Shown: one piece after another, positions 2,917 through 24,368 of the stretch | How the letters are laid out: each line of letters starts with the position of its first letter | Position numbering within the stretch: position 1 is the stretch's first letter | Virus record (IMG/VR): IMGVR_UViG_3300028393_001967 | DNA: 64,000 nucleotides | Source of the DNA: a virus | Reading direction: 5' to 3' (one strand) | Made by a program: the position numbers and the translations under genes | The notes under the pieces: model-generated | Databases searched by the model: none | What the model was told of the DNA's origin: nothing | The model's input: only the letters and a program-made list of their open reading frames with translations

Positions 2917-4319
2917 TTATTGATTGCTTTATGTTTTTCAACGAGTTTGATATGCTAGAAGGTCGACTTGAATATCTGTTTGACACTGTTGACTATTTTG
3001 TTATTGTAGAAAACGATCTCACTCATAGCGGAAATAAAAAGCCAATGAATTATGCAAATAATACAGAGCGTTATCGAAAATTTCAAAAGAAGATTATATA
3101 TCTTCCATTGAGTACTGATCATAGTAAGTATGACTGGAAAAGAGTGCCGCCGGTTGGTAGTTTGGATGTAACATCGTATTATGCATCTATGGCAATGGAT
3201 GTTGATCAACGTAATTATATTGCACAAGGTTTAAAACAGTTTAAACCCACTGATATTATTATGATCAGTGACTTGGACGAAATCCCAACCAAGAAAGCCA
3301 TTAAACAAGCAATACAACATATTAACAGTGGCGTGGAAGCGGTTGCATTTGTGCAAGATATGTTTTATTACAATCTTAAACAGAAGCAAACTAATCCTTG
3401 GGCAGGAACAATACTGACTACTAATAAATCAGTTGCTGAAAAAAGCCCGCAATGGTTTAGAAGAAAACGATGGGAGTTGCCTAAAATAATGGATGCTGGA
3501 TGGCATCTAAGTTATTGGATGACTCCTGAGCAAATACAACATAAGATTATGAACTTTGCTCATCAAGAATATAATATTCCTGATATTATTAATCTTGGAA
3601 ATATTGCAGAACGCATCAGAACTGGCAAAGATTTATTTGGTAGAGAAACGTCTACAACATCATACACTGAATTTATTCCTGTAGATAGAAGTAGTTTGAA
3701 TCCTGATTTGCTTTCAGTATTTGCTAAGTTTGAACCTAACCTGAATTATATTCCTCATTACTATGAAAATGTAGAAGGGTGGTTTAATCCTGGAGACATT
3801 GCGTTCTATAAAGAGATAATTGACAAGTTCAGTGGTCCTGCTCACTTTGTTGAGATTGGAAGTTACAAGGGAAAAAGTTCTAGCTTCATGGCTGTGGAAA
3901 TTGCCAACAGTGGCAAGAATATTAATTTTGACTGTGTTGATACTTGGGCAGGCAGTCCTGAACATCAAGCTGGTGGCAATCTAGAAGATCCAGATGTTGT
4001 TAACGACAAAATGTTTGACATCTTCAAACAGAATATGGAGCCTGTAAAAAGTTATTATAAAGCCAAACGTATGTCCAGTTTGGAAGCTGCTACTACTTAT
4101 TTGGATAAAAGTTTAGACTTTGTATTCATTGATGCAGATCACAGTTACGAAGCAGTTAGAGCAGATATCATAGCTTGGTGGCCAAAGGTAAAAAATGGCG
4201 GCATCATTAGTGGCCACGACTATCATATGGGTGCGCCAGGTGTTATGAACGCATCAAACGAACTGTTTGGTTATGTAAGAGTTACTGGCAGTTGTTGGTG
4301 GGTTGAGAAAAAAGTATGA
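2913..4319 (+). CDS. GT17-like glycosyltransferase fused to class I SAM methyltransferase
   Basis: IIDCFMFFNE, SDLDEIP and GWHLSY (GT17); VEIGSYKGKS, FIDADHSYE and GHDY (Methyltransf_24-like). Confidence 0.8.
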   Translation: MIIDCFMFFNEFDMLEGRLEYLFDTVDYFVIVENDLTHSGNKKPMNYANNTERYRKFQKKIIYLPLSTDHSKYDWKRVPPVGSLDVTSYYASMAMDVDQRNYIAQGLKQFKPTDIIMISDLDEIPTKKAIKQAIQHINSGVEAVAFVQDMFYYNLKQKQTNPWAGTILTTNKSVAEKSPQWFRRKRWELPKIMDAGWHLSYWMTPEQIQHKIMNFAHQEYNIPDIINLGNIAERIRTGKDLFGRETSTTSYTEFIPVDRSSLNPDLLSVFAKFEPNLNYIPHYYENVEGWFNPGDIAFYKEIIDKFSGPAHFVEIGSYKGKSSSFMAVEIANSGKNINFDCVDTWAGSPEHQAGGNLEDPDVVNDKMFDIFKQNMEPVKSYYKAKRMSSLEAATTYLDKSLDFVFIDADHSYEAVRADIIAWWPKVKNGGIISGHDYHMGAPGVMNASNELFGYVRVTGSCWWVEKKV

Positions 4320-5860
4320 CAACTATTCAATTAAAGAAGAAACTTAATTTTGGTGGCCGTCGGGTGGGACTAATCATCCCGCCTAGTCCCTTTCTGCTTG
4401 ACGAACGTGTCTTTGTAAGTCTAGGAATTTTGCGAGTTGCTGCTAGCCTTGAACAACAAGGAGTTGATGTTGGTGTTGTAGATCTCAGTGGTGTAAGTAA
4501 CTATTTGGAAGCACTTGATAGTTACGTTGAAACAGCAGACATCGAGTGGATTGGTATTACCTGCACTACTCCACAATTGCCAGCAGCAGTAAGGGTAGCT
4601 ACCCGTATTAGAAAAATACGGCCTAATCTACGTATTGTGCTTGGAGGCCCGCACGTTACACTAACTTACAGCGCAGTTAAGGTAGAAGAAAAAGCCGGAG
4701 TAATTGATGGTCGTGCTCGTAAAGCAGCGAGATTACTTGAAAGTTATTTTGATGTATTGGTATCAGGAGATGGAGAACTAGCAGTATTCGAATGTTTCAA
4801 ATCTGATTGTCCTAAAATGGTAGACGGTGACGATATGCGTGGTGATTTCTTTATGTCTAATGAACAGTATGAAGAACTTCCCCGCCCTGCAAGACATTTG
4901 GTTGATTTGAATACGTATCATTACAGCATTGAAGGGTTCCCCGCAACAAGTTTGATTGCACAGTTGGGATGTCCATTTAACTGCGGTTTTTGTGGAGGAC
5001 GAAATAGTAGAAGCCTACGTATTATTCGCACCCGCAGTGAATGGAGCATTGTTGACGAAGTGCGTTGGTTATATGAAACATATGGTTATACTGGTTTTAT
5101 GTTTTATGATGATGAACTAAACGTCAATAAAAGTTTTGTCAAATTGATGAACGACATTTATGACTTGCAACAGGAATTAGGTGTCGAGTTTAGACTACGT
5201 GGATTTATTAAAGCAGAATTGTTTACTGAAGAACAAGCGGAAGCAATGTACAGAGCTGGTTTCCGATGGATACTGAGCGGATTTGAATCCGCTGACCCTC
5301 GTATGCTGATCAACATTGACAAGATGGCCACACTGGAAGACAATACTCGTGTTGTTGAAATTGCTCACAAGTATGGACTAAAAGTCAAAGCATTGATGAG
5401 TGTTGGTCATCCTGGTGAAAGCGAAGAAAGTATTATGTGTATTCGTGACTGGCTGATCAAAATGAAAATTGATGACTTTGATTGTACAGTGATCACTACA
5501 TATCCAGGCACCCCATACTATGACCTAGCAGTACCTGATCCAGTAGAAAAAGGTGTTTGGACATACACGCATCGTAAAACAGGCGACAAGTTACACTCTT
5601 ATGAATTAGATCATACTGTAACGGCCGATTACTACAAAGGCGACCCTAATGGTGGTTACACTGCCTATGTGTTTACTGACAATTTGAGTGCCAAAAAGAT
5701 TGTGGAACTTCGCGACCTAGTAGAAAAAGACGTTCGAGCAGCATTAAACATTCCTTTTAATCCAGGTGGTGTAGCAGTAAAGTTTGAGCATAGTATGGGA
5801 CAGGGATTACCAGATTCCATATATCGCGAGTCTTTGGCTCTTGACATAGCAACTAAATGA
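4316..5860 (+). CDS. cobalamin-binding radical SAM enzyme
   Basis: B12-binding N-domain (SLGILRVAASL...LGGPHVT...GDGE) and CPFNCGFC. Confidence 0.88.
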   Translation: MTTIQLKKKLNFGGRRVGLIIPPSPFLLDERVFVSLGILRVAASLEQQGVDVGVVDLSGVSNYLEALDSYVETADIEWIGITCTTPQLPAAVRVATRIRKIRPNLRIVLGGPHVTLTYSAVKVEEKAGVIDGRARKAARLLESYFDVLVSGDGELAVFECFKSDCPKMVDGDDMRGDFFMSNEQYEELPRPARHLVDLNTYHYSIEGFPATSLIAQLGCPFNCGFCGGRNSRSLRIIRTRSEWSIVDEVRWLYETYGYTGFMFYDDELNVNKSFVKLMNDIYDLQQELGVEFRLRGFIKAELFTEEQAEAMYRAGFRWILSGFESADPRMLINIDKMATLEDNTRVVEIAHKYGLKVKALMSVGHPGESEESIMCIRDWLIKMKIDDFDCTVITTYPGTPYYDLAVPDPVEKGVWTYTHRKTGDKLHSYELDHTVTADYYKGDPNGGYTAYVFTDNLSAKKIVELRDLVEKDVRAALNIPFNPGGVAVKFEHSMGQGLPDSIYRESLALDIATK

Positions 5861-5920
5861 TGCTATAATTAATACATAGCAGCAAATGATGGAGTTGGCT
5901 GCTAACAAGTTCTTTAAAAA
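5841..5920 (+). promoter_or_regulatory. sigma70 promoter, hairpin and boxA-like antiterminator
   Basis: TTGACA-17-TATAAT with extended TG; hairpin 5877-5904; GTTCTTTAAAAA at 5909-5920. Confidence 0.65.
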
Positions 5921-5935
5921 GATATAGTAAATTTT

Positions 5936-6019
5936 GCGAGAGTGGTGGAATGGTATACACAGCAGACTTAAAATCTGCCGCTGAAAGGCATACGGGTTCG
6001 AGTCCCGTCTCTCGCACCA
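5936..6019 (+). tRNA. tRNA-Leu(UAA)
   Basis: Class II cloverleaf, loop CT TAA AA, ACCA. Confidence 0.93.
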
Positions 6020-6095
6020 TATATAAACACATTAAAACACGCCCCTAGTAGCAGTAGCGAATCAAGGGTGGAAGGTTGAGTGTGTTTATATATGG
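6017..6095 (+). ncRNA. stem-closed small RNA with an AGUA/GAA bulged-G motif
   Basis: 17-bp terminal stem; inner CCTAGTA-GC-AGTA-GC-GAA. Confidence 0.5.
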
Positions 6096-6100
6096 TTTTA

Positions 6101-6225
6101 GTTAGGAAGGTGGGATTAAAGGTGTCCATCCTCTAAGGAGTAGGGCCTGTATGTAATACAGGAAGTATTAGGTACCCCGTAACTGGTAAGGCCGACATCC
6201 CTTTTAGCGTAAAAGCACACCTAAC
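6101..6225 (+). ncRNA. 23S rRNA H43/H44 (GTPase-associated centre) mimic with a 65-nt insertion
   Basis: Position-by-position match to E. coli 23S 1051-1108 with helical pairs retained or compensated. Confidence 0.75.
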
Positions 6226-6234
6226 ATTTTATTT

Positions 6235-6311
6235 GTCCCGTTCATCTAGTGGCCAAGGATAGTATCCTTTTCGGGATATTCACAGAGGTTCGACTCCTCT
6301 ACGGGACGCCA
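6235..6311 (+). tRNA. tRNA-Glu-like with 8-nt anticodon loop
   Basis: Glu-type body (GTCCCGT.., TCTAGTGGCCAAGGA, 4-nt variable loop, GCCA); loop CTTTTCGG. Confidence 0.75.
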
Positions 6312-6324
6312 TATAGTTTTTATT

Positions 6325-6416
6325 GCCAGCGAGACTTGGAAGTCAGAGAGGTCTTATAAGCCTTTTAGCGCCAGATTAGCGTTCTTGAGTGGGTCCGATT
6401 CCCACCGCTGGTACCA
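6325..6416 (+). tRNA. atypical tRNA, UAU (Ile) anticodon, minimal D-arm, long variable region
   Basis: Acceptor GCCAGCG/CGCTGGT plus ACCA; loop CT TAT AA; T-loop TCCGATT. Confidence 0.7.
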
Positions 6417-6419
6417 AGT

Positions 6420-6651
6420 TTTGTAGTGTTAGCAAGAGAATGTCACGCTATACGGTATTCTTCGAAGGTACTGTATAGTAGAAGGCAAGCGGGTTCGATG
6501 CCCGGCTGGTCGCTTGAGTGGGACCGGCGATAGATGGAATCCACGCTGGACCGGTATCCCAAGTAACAAGTCCTGGAAGAACTCGACGTAAGGAAGTCCG
6601 GCTCTGTACGTCTAAACACTAGTGATAAACCTGAGGACACTAGACTACAAA
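6420..6651 (+). ncRNA. orphan structured RNA with a tRNA-type T-arm
   Basis: Terminal TTTGTAGT/ACTACAAA; hairpins at 6448-6478, 6490-6504, 6505-6528, 6585-6612 and 6619-6643; no credible ORF. Confidence 0.6.
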
Positions 6652-6720
6652 TTCATTATTTCGTTCTTGCTATTGACGCACAATAAATATTGTGTTATAA
6701 TAGTTTTTTAGTTAGTATTT

Positions 6721-9034: not shown

Positions 9035-9926
9035 AGGGTAGTTTAATATCCTGTAGGCGGTTCGCCGTCGACGAAGAATAACTGTGGTGACACAGCCAAA
9101 GGAGGTATGCCTACATAACTCCGCTAGTAATAGTTCGTTTAGACAAGCCTGCTCACTGTCGCGAGACAGCGATCACTGATAAGACCGGTGGTTGTAACAA
9201 TGACGCTGGATGTTGTGGAAAGAACCTTTGCTTACAAGCCCGCAAGGGGAACTTGAGTAGATGGAAAGTAACAGGTGGTGCTGACTTCACAACTAAACCA
9301 GTCCAGTTAATTAGTATGAGAAAGGGTAGTGTATTTGTCCGAAGGGTTGCACCTAAGGGCTTGTATGCAGTTTGAGTGGTTAGTGGAGGCTGTCAGCAAT
9401 GGCGGGGTCGACACAGATCGCAAAAGACGACTGAGTAGTTCGCAAGACAAAAGGTACGTGGTGTGTTGTATTATGTAGTCCAAAAGATTATGTAGCAACT
9501 GAGTCAGCACATCGCAGTAGGTTTACAGTAGCACAATGGTAGTGCAATTCCCTTTTAAGGAATAGGCTGTTGGTTCAAATCCAACCTTATATAAAATGCA
9601 AAGACTGACTCGGTCGTATGTGAAAGACATCTAATACTTGGCTCGTAAGAGAACTAAGTCTAATTAAACTCGCAAGGTGAGATTAGTTTATACAGGATGT
9701 TTCGTAAGGTGTTAGCGCACTTGAATGGCTCGCAAGGTCAACGGAATGGAAAGTGTAGAATAGCATACGGCGACGTGACTACTGCCTGTCACTAAAAACG
9801 GCGATGTTGACAACAGACTAGGATACCTAGCAATAGGGCTTAGTGGAAGTCGGAAGAAAGTAGACTCGCAAGGTTTACAATAATGTCCGAGGTGTTGTTC
9901 GGTAAGGATGTATTCTCAGTCCTCCA
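9035..9926 (+). ncRNA. large ornate ncRNA, GOLLD-like, with an embedded tRNA-Lys-like module
   Basis: ~890 nt without a credible ORF, at least 9 GNRA-capped hairpins, inside a phage tRNA operon; family name is inference. Confidence 0.6.
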
Positions 9927-11791: not shown

Positions 11792-12262
11792 TAAGACTGT
11801 ATGAAGTCGATTGAAAAGGATTCTGGACGCGGGTTCGACTCCCGCCAGGTCCACCATAAGGAAGTTTGATGATTTTACAAGATTTAGAATATATTTTCAA
11901 GCCGCAAGTTGACGAAGGTACAACCAAGTTGTACTTTATGTTGATAGATGGTGAGCATACGATGATGGAACGACACAATGCTAGTGATATTGAATCATTA
12001 GTTCCAATGTTAGATTCATTTCAATATGCTGGTACAGAAATTCGTATTCCTCGTTTTATAAAGTAAGTTTTCTTATGATGGGCCTGCCATGGTTTCGACA
12101 GGGTCAAGAGTAATGAAATGGACAGTCCGGCAATGTAGAAGCCGTTAGGGTTGGGGTTTCCCGGCCGAAGACACAAAACCTATAAATGCAAACGATTCAG
12201 TTTACGCATTGGCCGCCTAAACGCAGCCTGGGGTAAGACATACCTCGCAACAGAAACTCAAA
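11792..12262 (+). ncRNA. ssrA: two-piece circularly permuted tmRNA (acceptor piece ~11792-11856, coding piece 12080-~12262)
   Basis: GACGCGGGTTCGACTCCCGCCAGGTCCACCA precedes GGGCCTG..GGTTTCGACAG; G3-U70 pair; tag ANDSVYALAA* at 12188-12220. Confidence 0.92.
11866..12066 (+). CDS. hypothetical protein inside the tmRNA intervening segment
   Basis: 66-aa ORF fills the spacer; TAAGGA RBS. Confidence 0.65.
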   Translation: MMILQDLEYIFKPQVDEGTTKLYFMLIDGEHTMMERHNASDIESLVPMLDSFQYAGTEIRIPRFIK

Positions 12263-13069: not shown

Positions 13070-14089
13070 ATGTCTAAACAATATGATACCCTTGTCCTAA
13101 TCGGACGTTTTCAACCGTTTCACACAGCACATTTGATGCTGGCACATAGAGCCACTGCTAAATGTAAACAATTGATCTTTATTTGCGGCAGCGCTAATCA
13201 GCCACGCACTTACAAGAATCCCTTTACCTTTCACGAACGTAGCGTAATGATCAAGTACGCAACTAGTGGACTTGACTTGCAGGTTCAAGTTGAACCCAAT
13301 CCAGATACAATTTACAATGACCAAGCGTGGGCAGTTCGTGTTCAAGCATTGGTTGCTAAACATACCAAACCGGGTGATAACATTGGTATTATTGGGCACA
13401 AGAAAGATCCAAGTTCGTTTTACTTAGATATGTTCCCGCAATGGGGTTTTGAAGAAGTAGAACTGCTTGAACCACTTGATGCTACTGACATTCGCGAGTT
13501 GTATTTCAAACGTGATGTCAATATGAACTTTATTAAGAATGTTGTACCGCCGAGTACTTTTGATTTCTTAATGGCGTTTTCACTTACCGCAGAGTACGAA
13601 CAAGTGATCCGTGAACGTGAATTCATTATTGAACACAAAAAGCAATATGCTGGATTGAAGTATCCTCCAATCTTTAGTACTGCCGACGCTGTGGTCATTT
13701 GCAGTGGTCACGTACTAATGATCAAACGCCGTGCTGAACCAGGTCGCGGCCTTTGGGCACTGCCTGGCGGTTATGTCAATGCTAATACAGACAAAAGTGT
13801 TGAGGCCGCTATGTTGCGTGAACTACGTGAAGAAACACAGATCAAGGTTCCTGCTCCAGTACTTAAAGGTAGTATTGTTCGTAGCAGAGTATTTGATGCA
13901 ATTGACCGTAGTCCACGAGGTCGTATAATTACACACGCTTTCCACATTGTTCTACCTGATGGCGAACTTCCAAAAGTCAAAGGTAGTGATGATGCAGAAA
14001 AGGCTAGATGGGTGCCTATTGCAGAGGTCCGGTCGGATCAATGCTTTGAAGACCATTACGAAATCCTACAGCATTTTGTAGGTGCATAA
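13070..14089 (+). CDS. nadM: bifunctional NMN adenylyltransferase / Nudix ADP-ribose pyrophosphatase
   Basis: GRFQPFHTAH; Nudix box PGG..RELREET; GSDDAEKARW. Confidence 0.93.
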   Translation: MSKQYDTLVLIGRFQPFHTAHLMLAHRATAKCKQLIFICGSANQPRTYKNPFTFHERSVMIKYATSGLDLQVQVEPNPDTIYNDQAWAVRVQALVAKHTKPGDNIGIIGHKKDPSSFYLDMFPQWGFEEVELLEPLDATDIRELYFKRDVNMNFIKNVVPPSTFDFLMAFSLTAEYEQVIREREFIIEHKKQYAGLKYPPIFSTADAVVICSGHVLMIKRRAEPGRGLWALPGGYVNANTDKSVEAAMLRELREETQIKVPAPVLKGSIVRSRVFDAIDRSPRGRIITHAFHIVLPDGELPKVKGSDDAEKARWVPIAEVRSDQCFEDHYEILQHFVGA

Positions 14090-14130
14090 GCGATAGACGC
14101 GAATGCTTTTAACTTTAAAGGAACTTTAAA

Positions 14131-23348: not shown

Positions 23349-24368
23349 ATGACTCGTAAAATGGCAACTATCCGTAAGATTGATGCACTGCGTCCTATTG
23401 AAGGCGCTGATGCAATTGAATGCGCTATCGTAGGTGGATGGACCTGCGTGGTAAAGAAGGGTGAATACACTGCTGGTGATCTGGCTGTGTACTGCGAAAT
23501 TGATTCTTGGATTCCACATAACATTGCACCATTTCTATCAAAAGGAAACTTTCCACGTGTTTTCAATGAAGTCAAGGGTGAACGTCTGCGTACTGTAAAG
23601 TTGCGTGGTCAACTGTCACAGGGCCTTCTATTGGACCGATACACTGTTCTAGACAAGGTTGGTGAGATTTACGAAGGTATGGATGTTTCTGAACTGCTTG
23701 GCATCACCAAGTATGAAGCACCCATCCCCGCAGAACTTGCAGGTGAAGTCAAAGGTATGTTCCCTTCAGTGATTCCGAAGACTGACCAAGAGCGTATTCA
23801 AAACTTGTCAGCAGAGTTGGCGGAGTGGAAGACTGAAAATCTATCTTGGGAAATTACAGAGAAACTCGATGGGTCTTCAATGACTGTTTATGTTATTGAT
23901 GGTGAAGTTGGTGTTTGCTCACGCAACCTTGACCTCAAGCGTAATGTTGATAATTCATTGTGGCGTGCCGCTATCCGGCACGACTTAGAAGAAAAGTTGA
24001 AGATTGCAGGTGGTAACATTGCAGTCCAAGGTGAACTGATTGGAAACGGCATTCAAGGTAACAAGTACCAAATGCGTGATCAAGACTTTTATGTTTACGA
24101 CATTTATGACATTGATGCAGGTCGTTACTACACTCCTGCTGAACGAGTGGCGTTTGTAACTGAACACAAGTTGAATCACTGCCCTATTTTGATCTCTAAT
24201 GATCGTTTGGGCGGCGGCGAAACTATTGAAAATCTGTTGAAGTACGCTGAAGGTAATTCAGAATTGAATCCCAAGCAAGAGCGTGAAGGACTGGTGTTCA
24301 AGTGTAACGAAAAGTCTGTGAGCTTCAAGGCAATTTCTAACAAATTTTTATTAAAGAGTGGTGAATAA
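23349..24368 (+). CDS. ATP-dependent RNA ligase, DRB0094-type
   Basis: RKMATIRKI..ADAIE, TEKLDGSS, QGELIG, REGLVFK, SFKAIS. Confidence 0.9.
   Translation: MTRKMATIRKIDALRPIEGADAIECAIVGGWTCVVKKGEYTAGDLAVYCEIDSWIPHNIAPFLSKGNFPRVFNEVKGERLRTVKLRGQLSQGLLLDRYTVLDKVGEIYEGMDVSELLGITKYEAPIPAELAGEVKGMFPSVIPKTDQERIQNLSAELAEWKTENLSWEITEKLDGSSMTVYVIDGEVGVCSRNLDLKRNVDNSLWRAAIRHDLEEKLKIAGGNIAVQGELIGNGIQGNKYQMRDQDFYVYDIYDIDAGRYYTPAERVAFVTEHKLNHCPILISNDRLGGGETIENLLKYAEGNSELNPKQEREGLVFKCNEKSVSFKAISNKFLLKSGE

Follow-up and report, generated by a model that had tools for sequence, protein, structure and literature searches.

The question raised by positions 6101-6225 (+) of the virus record IMGVR_UViG_3300028393_001967 is why a large phage carries, inside a cluster of tRNA genes, a 125-nt gene that reads like a piece of bacterial 23S ribosomal RNA (rRNA). 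The stretch analysed, referred to here as the window, is 64,000 nt long, and a preliminary description of it had proposed that this sequence encodes a free-standing RNA that mimics the GTPase-associated centre (GAC), the domain at Escherichia coli 23S positions 1051-1108, whose numbering is used throughout. The quoted sequence is indeed present on the + strand between a tRNA-Leu(UAA) gene (5936-6019) and a tRNA-Glu homologue (6235-6311). The comparisons presented below support the view, already favoured in that description, that the element is a selected, stand-alone GAC mimic and not a captured rRNA fragment: helix 42 (H42) is replaced by a covarying stem, the helices covary across more than 100 members of a family, a tertiary base triple covaries as well, and the members lie in the tRNA arrays of unrelated phages.

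The element and its family

The register of the element was tested against an actual 23S rRNA, that of Salmonella LT2 (NR_076079.2), and the proposed assignment of G6106 to 1055 and of C6220 to 1104 was borne out, the alignment being gap-free except for the insert. The two sequences are identical at 34 of 58 positions. Eight of the differences lie at 1051-1054 and 1105-1108, with the pairing of the closing stem (P1) preserved in all of them, eight more make up four compensated pairs (1058-1080, 1064-1074, 1082-1086 and 1090-1101), and another eight are unpaired changes (1056, 1061, 1068, 1070, 1072, 1073, 1089 and 1097). Comparison with the real 23S sequence also recovered, in the window copy, every pair of helices 43 and 44 (H43 and H44) that had been listed beforehand, together with U1060, A1088, A1067 and A1095.

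All parts of the element lie on the + strand. P1 joins 6101-6106, which replaces the top of H42 (1050-1055), to 6220-6225 (1104-1109) through six Watson-Crick pairs, and forms a self-closing stem directly below 1055-1104. The H43 equivalent (6108-6132), whose register was checked against the real 23S, consists of a base stem (6108-6110/6130-6132; 1057-1059/1079-1081) followed by U6111, the counterpart of U1060, a top stem (6113-6115/6125-6127; 1062-1064/1074-1076) and a loop (6116-6124) in which A6118 corresponds to A1067 and U6123 to 1072. At 6133-6141, C1082-G1086 closes a UAA triloop, followed by G1087, A1088, G1089 and U1090. Beyond the insert, the H44 hairpin (6207-6219) comprises G1091-C1100, C1092-G1099 and a GUAAAA loop with A6211 in the place of A1095, followed by A1101 (A6217), C1102 and A1103.

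As had been noted, rRNA flanks are absent. LSU (large subunit) rRNA was not matched in the window by Rfam, and the element is flanked by a hairpin spacer and tRNAs, with no H41/H42 or H45 sequence beside it and with 1090 and 1091 split by a 65-nt insert; a genuine 23S gene or fragment would not have this form. Taken alone, the window copy is not convincing, and the case rests on its relatives. The z-score of its minimum free energy (MFE) is only -0.97 and single-sequence folding is not significant on either strand, so that thermodynamics alone would have missed the element. Local alignment of its two halves to full 23S stayed within the range of shuffled sequence. Rfam searches of the whole window at gathering score, and of 6000-6720 at E<=10, left the element unmatched, the LSU model included, and BLAST against GenBank phages returned no match for it. 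The exact window-type H43 loop was not found in a scan of IMG/VR, the sole metagenome match being an unrelated coding region.

The relatives were reached through a 16-mer from the 3' half of the element, which matched three unrelated groups of IMG/VR contigs. Upstream in all three lies a sequence resembling E. coli 1055-1090, then 100-240 nt, then (C/G)UUUAGCGUAAAAGCACACC. Scans for the canonical H43 loop and for a 17-mer of the window insert added many more, and 126 non-redundant members passed strict structural filters; they come from phage contigs in IMG/VR, from genome contigs that resemble prophages, and from cultured phages. In the family consensus, the 5' part is made of P1 (4-15 nt), GG-A-NNG-U-N, the H43 hairpin GGCUU(A/G)(G/A)AAGCAGCC, A-YCNN, YUAAR and GAGU, and the 3' part of a helix-closed insert, UUU(G/A), GCGUAANAGC, ACAC and the 3' strand of P1. 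The GAGU hardly varies between members, and a Paenibacillus 23S rRNA naturally carries these four bases as well.

A covariance-model search had been named in the preliminary description as the way to check its proposal. Such a model (R1), constructed from 30 members that included neither the window nor its four nearest relatives, finds the window element in one copy with 86.6 bits (E 1.2e-20) over all model positions, 1-153 of 153; the homologs keep the H43 and H44 positions. A genuine Paenibacillus 23S GAC scores 58 bits with R1. In the opposite direction, the Rfam bacterial LSU model places a typical member at the GAC positions (model 1098-1143) with 26.4 bits (E 5e-8), below its cut-off. 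When eight family loci were compared with Rfam, the element was unmatched at gathering score, and none of the members tested reaches the gathering score of an Rfam 15 family. The window element is therefore not unique, being a somewhat divergent member of a large family, and its significance comes from that family and not from the window copy alone. It is a bona fide member whose slight divergence lies in an A-U pair at 1064-1074, in G1070 and G1073, and in a unique, uncompensated U1072.

Conservation is uneven along the RNA. The core, including exposed loop bases and the base triple discussed below, is far more conserved than any insert. Within the H44 loop, A1095 is kept in 34 of 36 members and A1098 in all 36. 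Position 1067 is A in about 80% of the family and mostly G in the rest (G in 10 of 59, and in 5 of 36 in an unbiased set).

Covariation, the 1072 triple and the insert

In a 30-member alignment scored on the GAC structure together with the insert-closing helix, 98.3% of cells pair, compared with 70.0% after shuffling, and the covariation score is 0.668, compared with 0.152 for shuffled alignments and 0.08-0.14 when the partners are slid. Both partners have changed in 17 of the 23 pairs. Covariation extends to each of the eight P1 pairs and each of the four pairs that close the insert, and within the family also to 1057-1081, 1058-1080 and 1064-1074; 1058-1080 occurs as U-A, A-U or G-C, 1082-1086 as U-A (14), C-G (11) or A-U (1), and 1090-1101 as U-A in 29 of 30 members and C-G in the other. 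Pairing in P1 and H43 was a condition of extraction, and several loop positions were set by the search patterns; this inflates the percentage of paired cells but not the diversity of pair types.

The strongest evidence concerns a tertiary contact. In rRNA, C1072 pairs with C1092 and bonds with G1099, and this triple is stacked on G1071·(G1091-C1100), locking the two loops together (PMC2952862, PMC8614978). One expected match had been reported as missing in the window, where U1072 faces C1092-G1099, and the mismatch is real. A phage record with two tandem GAC-mimic genes at 3847-4085 and 4100-4335 (L151, IMGVR_UViG_3300022188_000229) carries C1072·C-G in one copy and U1072·U-A in the other. Following the combination of U1072 with U1092-A1099 in that copy, IMG/VR was scanned for 3' halves with U1092 and A1099. 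Among the non-redundant members chosen only by U1092-A1099 and having a 5' half that could be recognised with a pattern leaving 1072 free, U stands at 1072 in 49 of 51, and C1092-G1099 is present in 59 of 59 members found through a 5' pattern with C1072. In the strict set of 126, the states at 1072, 1092 and 1099 are CCG in 88, UUA in 35, CUA in 2 and UCG in 1, an association with a Fisher p of ~2e-19, uncorrected for relatedness. Both C-G and A-U at 1064-1074 occur with either state of the triple. Two insert types (L352/L102 and L294/L064, with ~74% identity) are likewise common to both states, which suggests, short of proof, that the triple has switched more than once. Judged from these sequences, the family appears to keep the compact three-dimensional fold of the GAC, and not its helices alone.

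The window is the sole UCG case among the 126 members and thus lacks a matched triple. Its four nearest relatives all carry C1072, which makes the U1072 of the window a private, uncompensated change, and a second copy with U1072 and C-G was not found in the 126-member set or in exact-loop scans. Folding or binding of the window copy may accordingly be somewhat poorer than in a typical member.

The insert at 6142-6206 had been described as a single self-closed helix. Closure by AGGG/CCCU stands, and the remainder of that picture has to be replaced, since RNAalifold on seven short-insert relatives (the window with L031, L145, L158, L161, L148 and L182) predicts a three-way junction with two hairpins at 6142-6202. 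Its parts are the closing helix Pa (6142-6145/6199-6202), the hairpin Pb (6146-6162), the junction strand AAGUAUUA (6163-6170) and the module Pc (6171-6193; GG-UA-CCCC-GUAAC-UGG-UAA-GG-CC), and compensatory changes are found in Pa, Pb and Pc. In the short-insert relatives the consensus of Pc is NN-(C/U)A-CCCC-loop-GG-UAA-GG-NN; the module recurs in many members with far longer inserts, and the full element is present at 43 of the 44 IMG/VR loci that hold its 17-mer. Between insert and H44 lies the linker UUUA (6203-6206), part of a conserved UUU(R) that has no counterpart in rRNA: 57-58 of a set of 59 members have the UUU, and the base after it is G (48) or A (10). In the window, as in the family, the helix-closed insert stands between U1090 and G1091, with the linker following it and an A at 1101. 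A CUUUUA/UAAAAG hairpin that can be drawn in the 3' half of the window element was rejected, most members having G before G1091 and 1097 being variable.

Insert length ranges from 27 to 400 nt in the family, and the insertion point is always between 1090 and 1091. The shortest insert is a 27-nt hairpin (L135, 86.4 bits), and a candidate insert-less variant (L091) consists of 54 nt with a weak P1 and scores 36.8 bits. Given such variability, down to 27-nt or possibly insert-less forms, the GAC core is the common denominator of the family. Local alignment to full 23S gave the window insert no significant similarity to any part of it, which indicates that the insert was not copied from elsewhere in the rRNA, for example from the sarcin-ricin loop.

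What a free GAC could capture

Comparison with the relatives shows that the RNA folds as a self-closed GAC in which a generic stem stands for H42, while H43, the 1082-1086 triloop hairpin and H44 are kept. The contacts that lock the loops together, U1060/A1088, G1071 with G1091-C1100 and 1072 with 1092-1099, are retained across the family, and a variable structured domain is placed between U1090 and G1091, where it can leave the compact fold. As the mimic cannot be part of a ribosome, it would act in trans, by capturing something that recognises the folded GAC. The isolated 58-nt rRNA domain binds uL11 tightly in vitro. Ribosomal_L11 and Ribosomal_L12 domains scored over the cut-off in 0 of 49 carrier records, 18 of them at least 90% complete, so that any such protein partner would be that of the host. 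Host uL11 is the simplest candidate and would be the likeliest direct ligand. Taken as a whole, the observations are best explained by a GAC mimic that works off the ribosome and captures one of the ligands of the GAC, host uL11 being the most likely; to this reading we would assign a probability of roughly 0.55. There may be an even chance that the broader statement holds, namely that phages of many lineages carry a free, correctly folded mini-GAC that captures host uL11, or an enzyme or factor directed to the GAC, during infection. Possible consequences of uL11 binding would be the sequestration or buffering of the protein, and hence of the uL11-dependent RelA response; alternatively, a uL11-RNA surface could be presented to factors. 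The roles suggested in the preliminary description, titration of uL11, a weakened stringent response or absorption of a defence enzyme, stand as hypotheses.

Several points weigh against uL11 capture as the function. It is not to be expected that a free RNA removes uL11 from ribosomes already assembled, which leaves the gain from binding it during a short infection unclear. A pure uL11 decoy does not account for the conserved insert module or the UUU(R) linker, neither of which has an rRNA counterpart. Conservation of the fold would be expected equally with a toxin, a modifying enzyme or a GTPase as ligand. With respect to the evidence itself, shared ancestry may account for part of the triple association, the search patterns dictated core positions in part of the sampling, and the window, with its U1072 against C1092-G1099 in 1 of 126 members, could be an impaired copy.

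The chief rival to uL11 capture is a decoy that offers surplus GAC targets to a host enzyme, such as an ADP-ribosyltransferase, nuclease or methyltransferase, which attacks the ribosomal GAC in the course of infection or of conflict between bacteria, so that the ribosomes are spared. A bacterial toxin of exactly such specificity exists, Tre23 of the type VI secretion system, which ADP-ribosylates H44 at 1095-1098 and blocks the GTPase activity of EF-G (PMC8661411). The near-complete retention of A1095 and A1098, together with the three-dimensional fold, speaks for such a decoy, and the element accompanies other phage RNAs and genes that replace or protect translation components, including tRNA arrays, tmRNA (transfer-messenger RNA) and RNA ligase. 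We know of no phage-defence system that targets the GAC, however; Tre23 itself is a secretion effector and not an anti-phage system, and the decoy would have to compete with tens of thousands of ribosomes. On balance this explanation is unlikely.

Somewhat less probable still is the possibility that the GAC fold, perhaps protected by bound uL11, is only a stable, nuclease-resistant chassis and that the variable insert is the working part. The inserts are structured, differ widely in size and keep a fixed insertion point, and the module AGUR-N8-YA-CCCC-loop-GG-UAA-GG recurs only inside these elements, all of which would suit a scaffold. The members with only a 27-nt hairpin, or possibly no insert, fit it poorly, as do the many members that have no such module and the fact that conservation is concentrated in the core, down to exposed loop bases and the triple, and not in the inserts.

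A third explanation, which we consider improbable, is that the RNA, alone or with uL11, traps a translational GTPase or RelA and thereby alters translation or alarmone signalling. Within the ribosome, A1067 and A1095 are the bases through which the GAC touches EF-G, EF-Tu and other GTPases, and RelA activation requires uL11. The near-invariance of A1095 is in keeping with this role. The other contact base, A1067, is essentially fixed in bacterial rRNA, whereas in the family it is far from invariant, which weakens a reading based on factor docking relative to one based on the fold or on uL11. The element also lacks the sarcin-ricin loop, which makes up the other half of the factor site, and its insert has no significant similarity to any part of 23S.

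It is very doubtful that the insert is an intron, spliced out to leave a plain 58-nt GAC RNA. Removal of insert and linker would leave AAGGAGU joined to GCGUAA, as in the contiguous GAGU-GCGUAA of a Firmicute 23S, and U is the last base of the 5' part, G the usual last base of the insert. Against splicing, 27-65 nt is far too small for a group I or group II intron, 10 of 59 members have an insert that finishes with A, and the closing helix and UUU(R) linker are conserved as if they belonged to the mature fold. This reading was rejected, the window insert having 65 nt and ending in A, and no Rfam intron match having been obtained here or in loci with inserts of 240-400 nt. Finally, a dead fragment captured from host 23S or an assembly contaminant, although genuine rRNA pieces do occur in phage records (for instance in Paenibacillus phage Pd_22F, 83956-84019, with rRNA flanks), is refuted by covariation and distribution, as the family has no rRNA flank, a covarying stem in place of H42, compensatory changes in every helix, a fixed insert site and linker, and more than 100 members in unrelated phages.

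Compared with the GAC of 23S rRNA, the mimic has the same helices and loop sequences, the 1082-1086 triloop hairpin and U1060/A1088, and the family keeps the triples G1071·(G1091-C1100) and 1072·(1092-1099), the latter covarying. Unlike the rRNA domain, it lies outside an rRNA gene, in phage tRNA arrays, and has a free covarying stem for H42, an insert and UUU(R) linker at 1090/1091, an A1101 that pairs with U1090, and a position 1067 that is not fixed. RNA mimicry of a ribosomal protein site on rRNA is also seen in ribosomal protein leaders (the L10 leader RF00557, and those of L1 and L20), the rplJ leader imitating the neighbouring uL10 site. Those leaders are cis-acting 5' untranslated regions of cellular ribosomal protein operons and only loosely resemble rRNA, whereas the mimic is a self-closed, near-letter copy; downstream of it lie tRNAs, with no ribosomal protein gene nearby and no match to an Rfam leader. 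GOLLD, ROOL, drum and phage tmRNA share the tRNA-array niche, GOLLD and tmRNA occurring in the window and ROOL and drum beside one member, and where their function is known it relates to translation, but they are unrelated to the mimic in sequence and structure and none copies an rRNA domain. The principle of an RNA that imitates a nucleic acid and captures its protein partner is shared with 6S RNA, the bacterial Y RNA and phage pseudo-ToxI, which are trans-acting RNA mimics or decoys (PMC3475682, PMC4201824). Pseudo-ToxI is an instance of phages turning RNA mimicry against host systems. All three imitate other objects, and none imitates ribosomal RNA.

It is established that phages supply tRNAs, tmRNA and a small number of ribosomal proteins. 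So far as Rfam 15 and the searchable literature go, no phage has been described with a copy of a functional rRNA domain, which agrees with the preliminary statement that no described phage RNA of this kind was known. The main text of a survey of 224 motifs (PMC5737381) mentions neither 23S nor L11 nor rRNA, and the genome paper of phage pf16 does not mention 23S. If the proposed mimicry is real, it would be the first virus-encoded mimic of an rRNA domain and would add a new layer of control over translation, the stringent response or defence. The GAC is among the best-studied RNA-protein modules, to which existing uL11, thiostrepton and EF-G assays can be applied, and the size of the family and the availability of cultured, tractable phage-host pairs, such as pf16 on Pseudomonas putida PpG1, make the benefit of a free GAC directly testable. 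The answer could bring to light a new strategy of counter-defence or translation takeover, or a host attack on the GAC that has escaped notice. For the GAC fold, the family moreover offers a set of natural sequences free of the constraints imposed by the ribosome.

Genomic setting and carriers

Transcription of the element would begin at a sigma-70-type promoter predicted at 5841-5869 (+) by consensus match only (TTGACA, a 17-nt spacer and TG-TATAAT; 12 of 12 consensus positions with an extended -10). No terminator was found between this site and the next promoter-like site (6673-6701), and the promoter probably drives tRNA-Leu, the mimic RNA, the tRNA-Glu-like gene and tRNA-Ile. The gene at 6101-6225 would then yield a small stable RNA transcribed together with the neighbouring tRNAs. 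The tRNA-Leu(UAA) gene (+) was called by ARAGORN, scores 61.7 bits with the Rfam tRNA model and is also the neighbour of the element in L161. Overlapping its ACCA end is a spacer hairpin (6016-6097, +) with a perfect, AT-rich stem of 18 bp, an MFE of -31.7 kcal/mol and a z-score of -5.96, none of 200 shuffles being as stable. L161 and L158 retain this stem, with a loop that varies. The hairpin is a candidate processing site of the RNase III type, at which a double-strand-specific or other endonuclease would cut and free the 5' end of the mimic, and an RNase P cut at the downstream tRNA would define its 3' trailer.

That downstream gene, the tRNA-Glu(UUC) homologue (+), begins 9 nt past the mimic and aligns with the tRNA-Glu of L161 and L158. 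ARAGORN reads in it a 6-nt anticodon loop with a two-base 'anticodon' (tt), and it may be a damaged gene or an unusual decoder. The tRNA-Ile(UAU) that follows (6325-6416) measures 92 nt and has a long extra arm; it is conserved in L161 and L158 and scores 30.3 bits with the Rfam tRNA-Sec model, below the cut-off of 47. The 256 nt from tRNA-Ile to the next promoter (6417-6672) contain no + strand open reading frame (ORF) of at least 50 aa and no Rfam match; a 65-aa ORF lies on the - strand. This stretch includes the T-arm-like word GGTTCGAT, has a fold z-score of only -1.12 and is absent from L161 and L158.

The gene order is shared with relatives. In L161 it runs tRNA-Leu, hairpin, element, 9 nt, tRNA-Glu and tRNA-Ile, and in L158, whose contig begins within the hairpin, it runs hairpin, element and tRNA-Glu, with a tRNA-Arg before tRNA-Ile. 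Across the family, a tRNA lies within 500 nt of 102 of 193 elements, and the nearest tRNA is on the strand of the element in 128 of 130 cases; in the window, + strand tRNAs stand on both sides. Twenty tRNA genes are present in the window in addition to a GOLLD RNA (9458-9922; 201.8 bits), which encloses tRNA-Lys (9521-9593), and a permuted tmRNA (11795-12220; 119.4 bits) with the tag ANDSVYALAA. ROOL and drum RNAs were seen near a family member elsewhere (L010).

Carriers of the element are viral records of 46-433 kb, 18 of which are at least 90% complete. R1 also has 35 matches in species-representative genomes, comprising isolates (among them Flintibacter muris DSM 110149, Clostridiaceae strain 9 and Bacterium D16-76) and many metagenome-assembled genomes; the eight genome loci checked contain no rRNA genes and are either tRNA-rich or without any Rfam match. 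A match in Paenibacillus phage Pd_22F (L248 1380-1680; MZ092003.1 ~83956-84019) was rejected as a member, being genuine, unannotated Firmicute 23S with rRNA flanks near the end of the genome, probably host DNA or an assembly artefact. Among cultured phages, the element is present and unannotated in Pseudomonas pf16 (107.5 bits), Aeromonas 4_4572 (96.1 bits), Cronobacter GAP32 (87.5 bits) and Xanthomonas XacN1 (85.9 bits). BLAST also indicates it in Serratia BF, Pectobacterium CBB, Erwinia and Yersinia jumbo phages and one Vibrio phage.

The clamp loader of the window shares 53% identity with its counterpart in the Pseudomonas jumbo phage PA5oct group, which points to a large tailed phage without a close cultured relative; the GAC-mimic element was not found in PA5oct, the nearest cultured relative by this protein. 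Other window genes encode a tail fibre, an NMNAT-Nudix and NAMPT pair for NAD salvage (13070-15525), a T4 Rnl1-like RNA ligase (23349-24368) and a B12-binding radical SAM enzyme (4316-5860). The NAD-salvage pair, RNA ligase and radical SAM enzyme form a set typical of counter-defence and tRNA repair in large phages.

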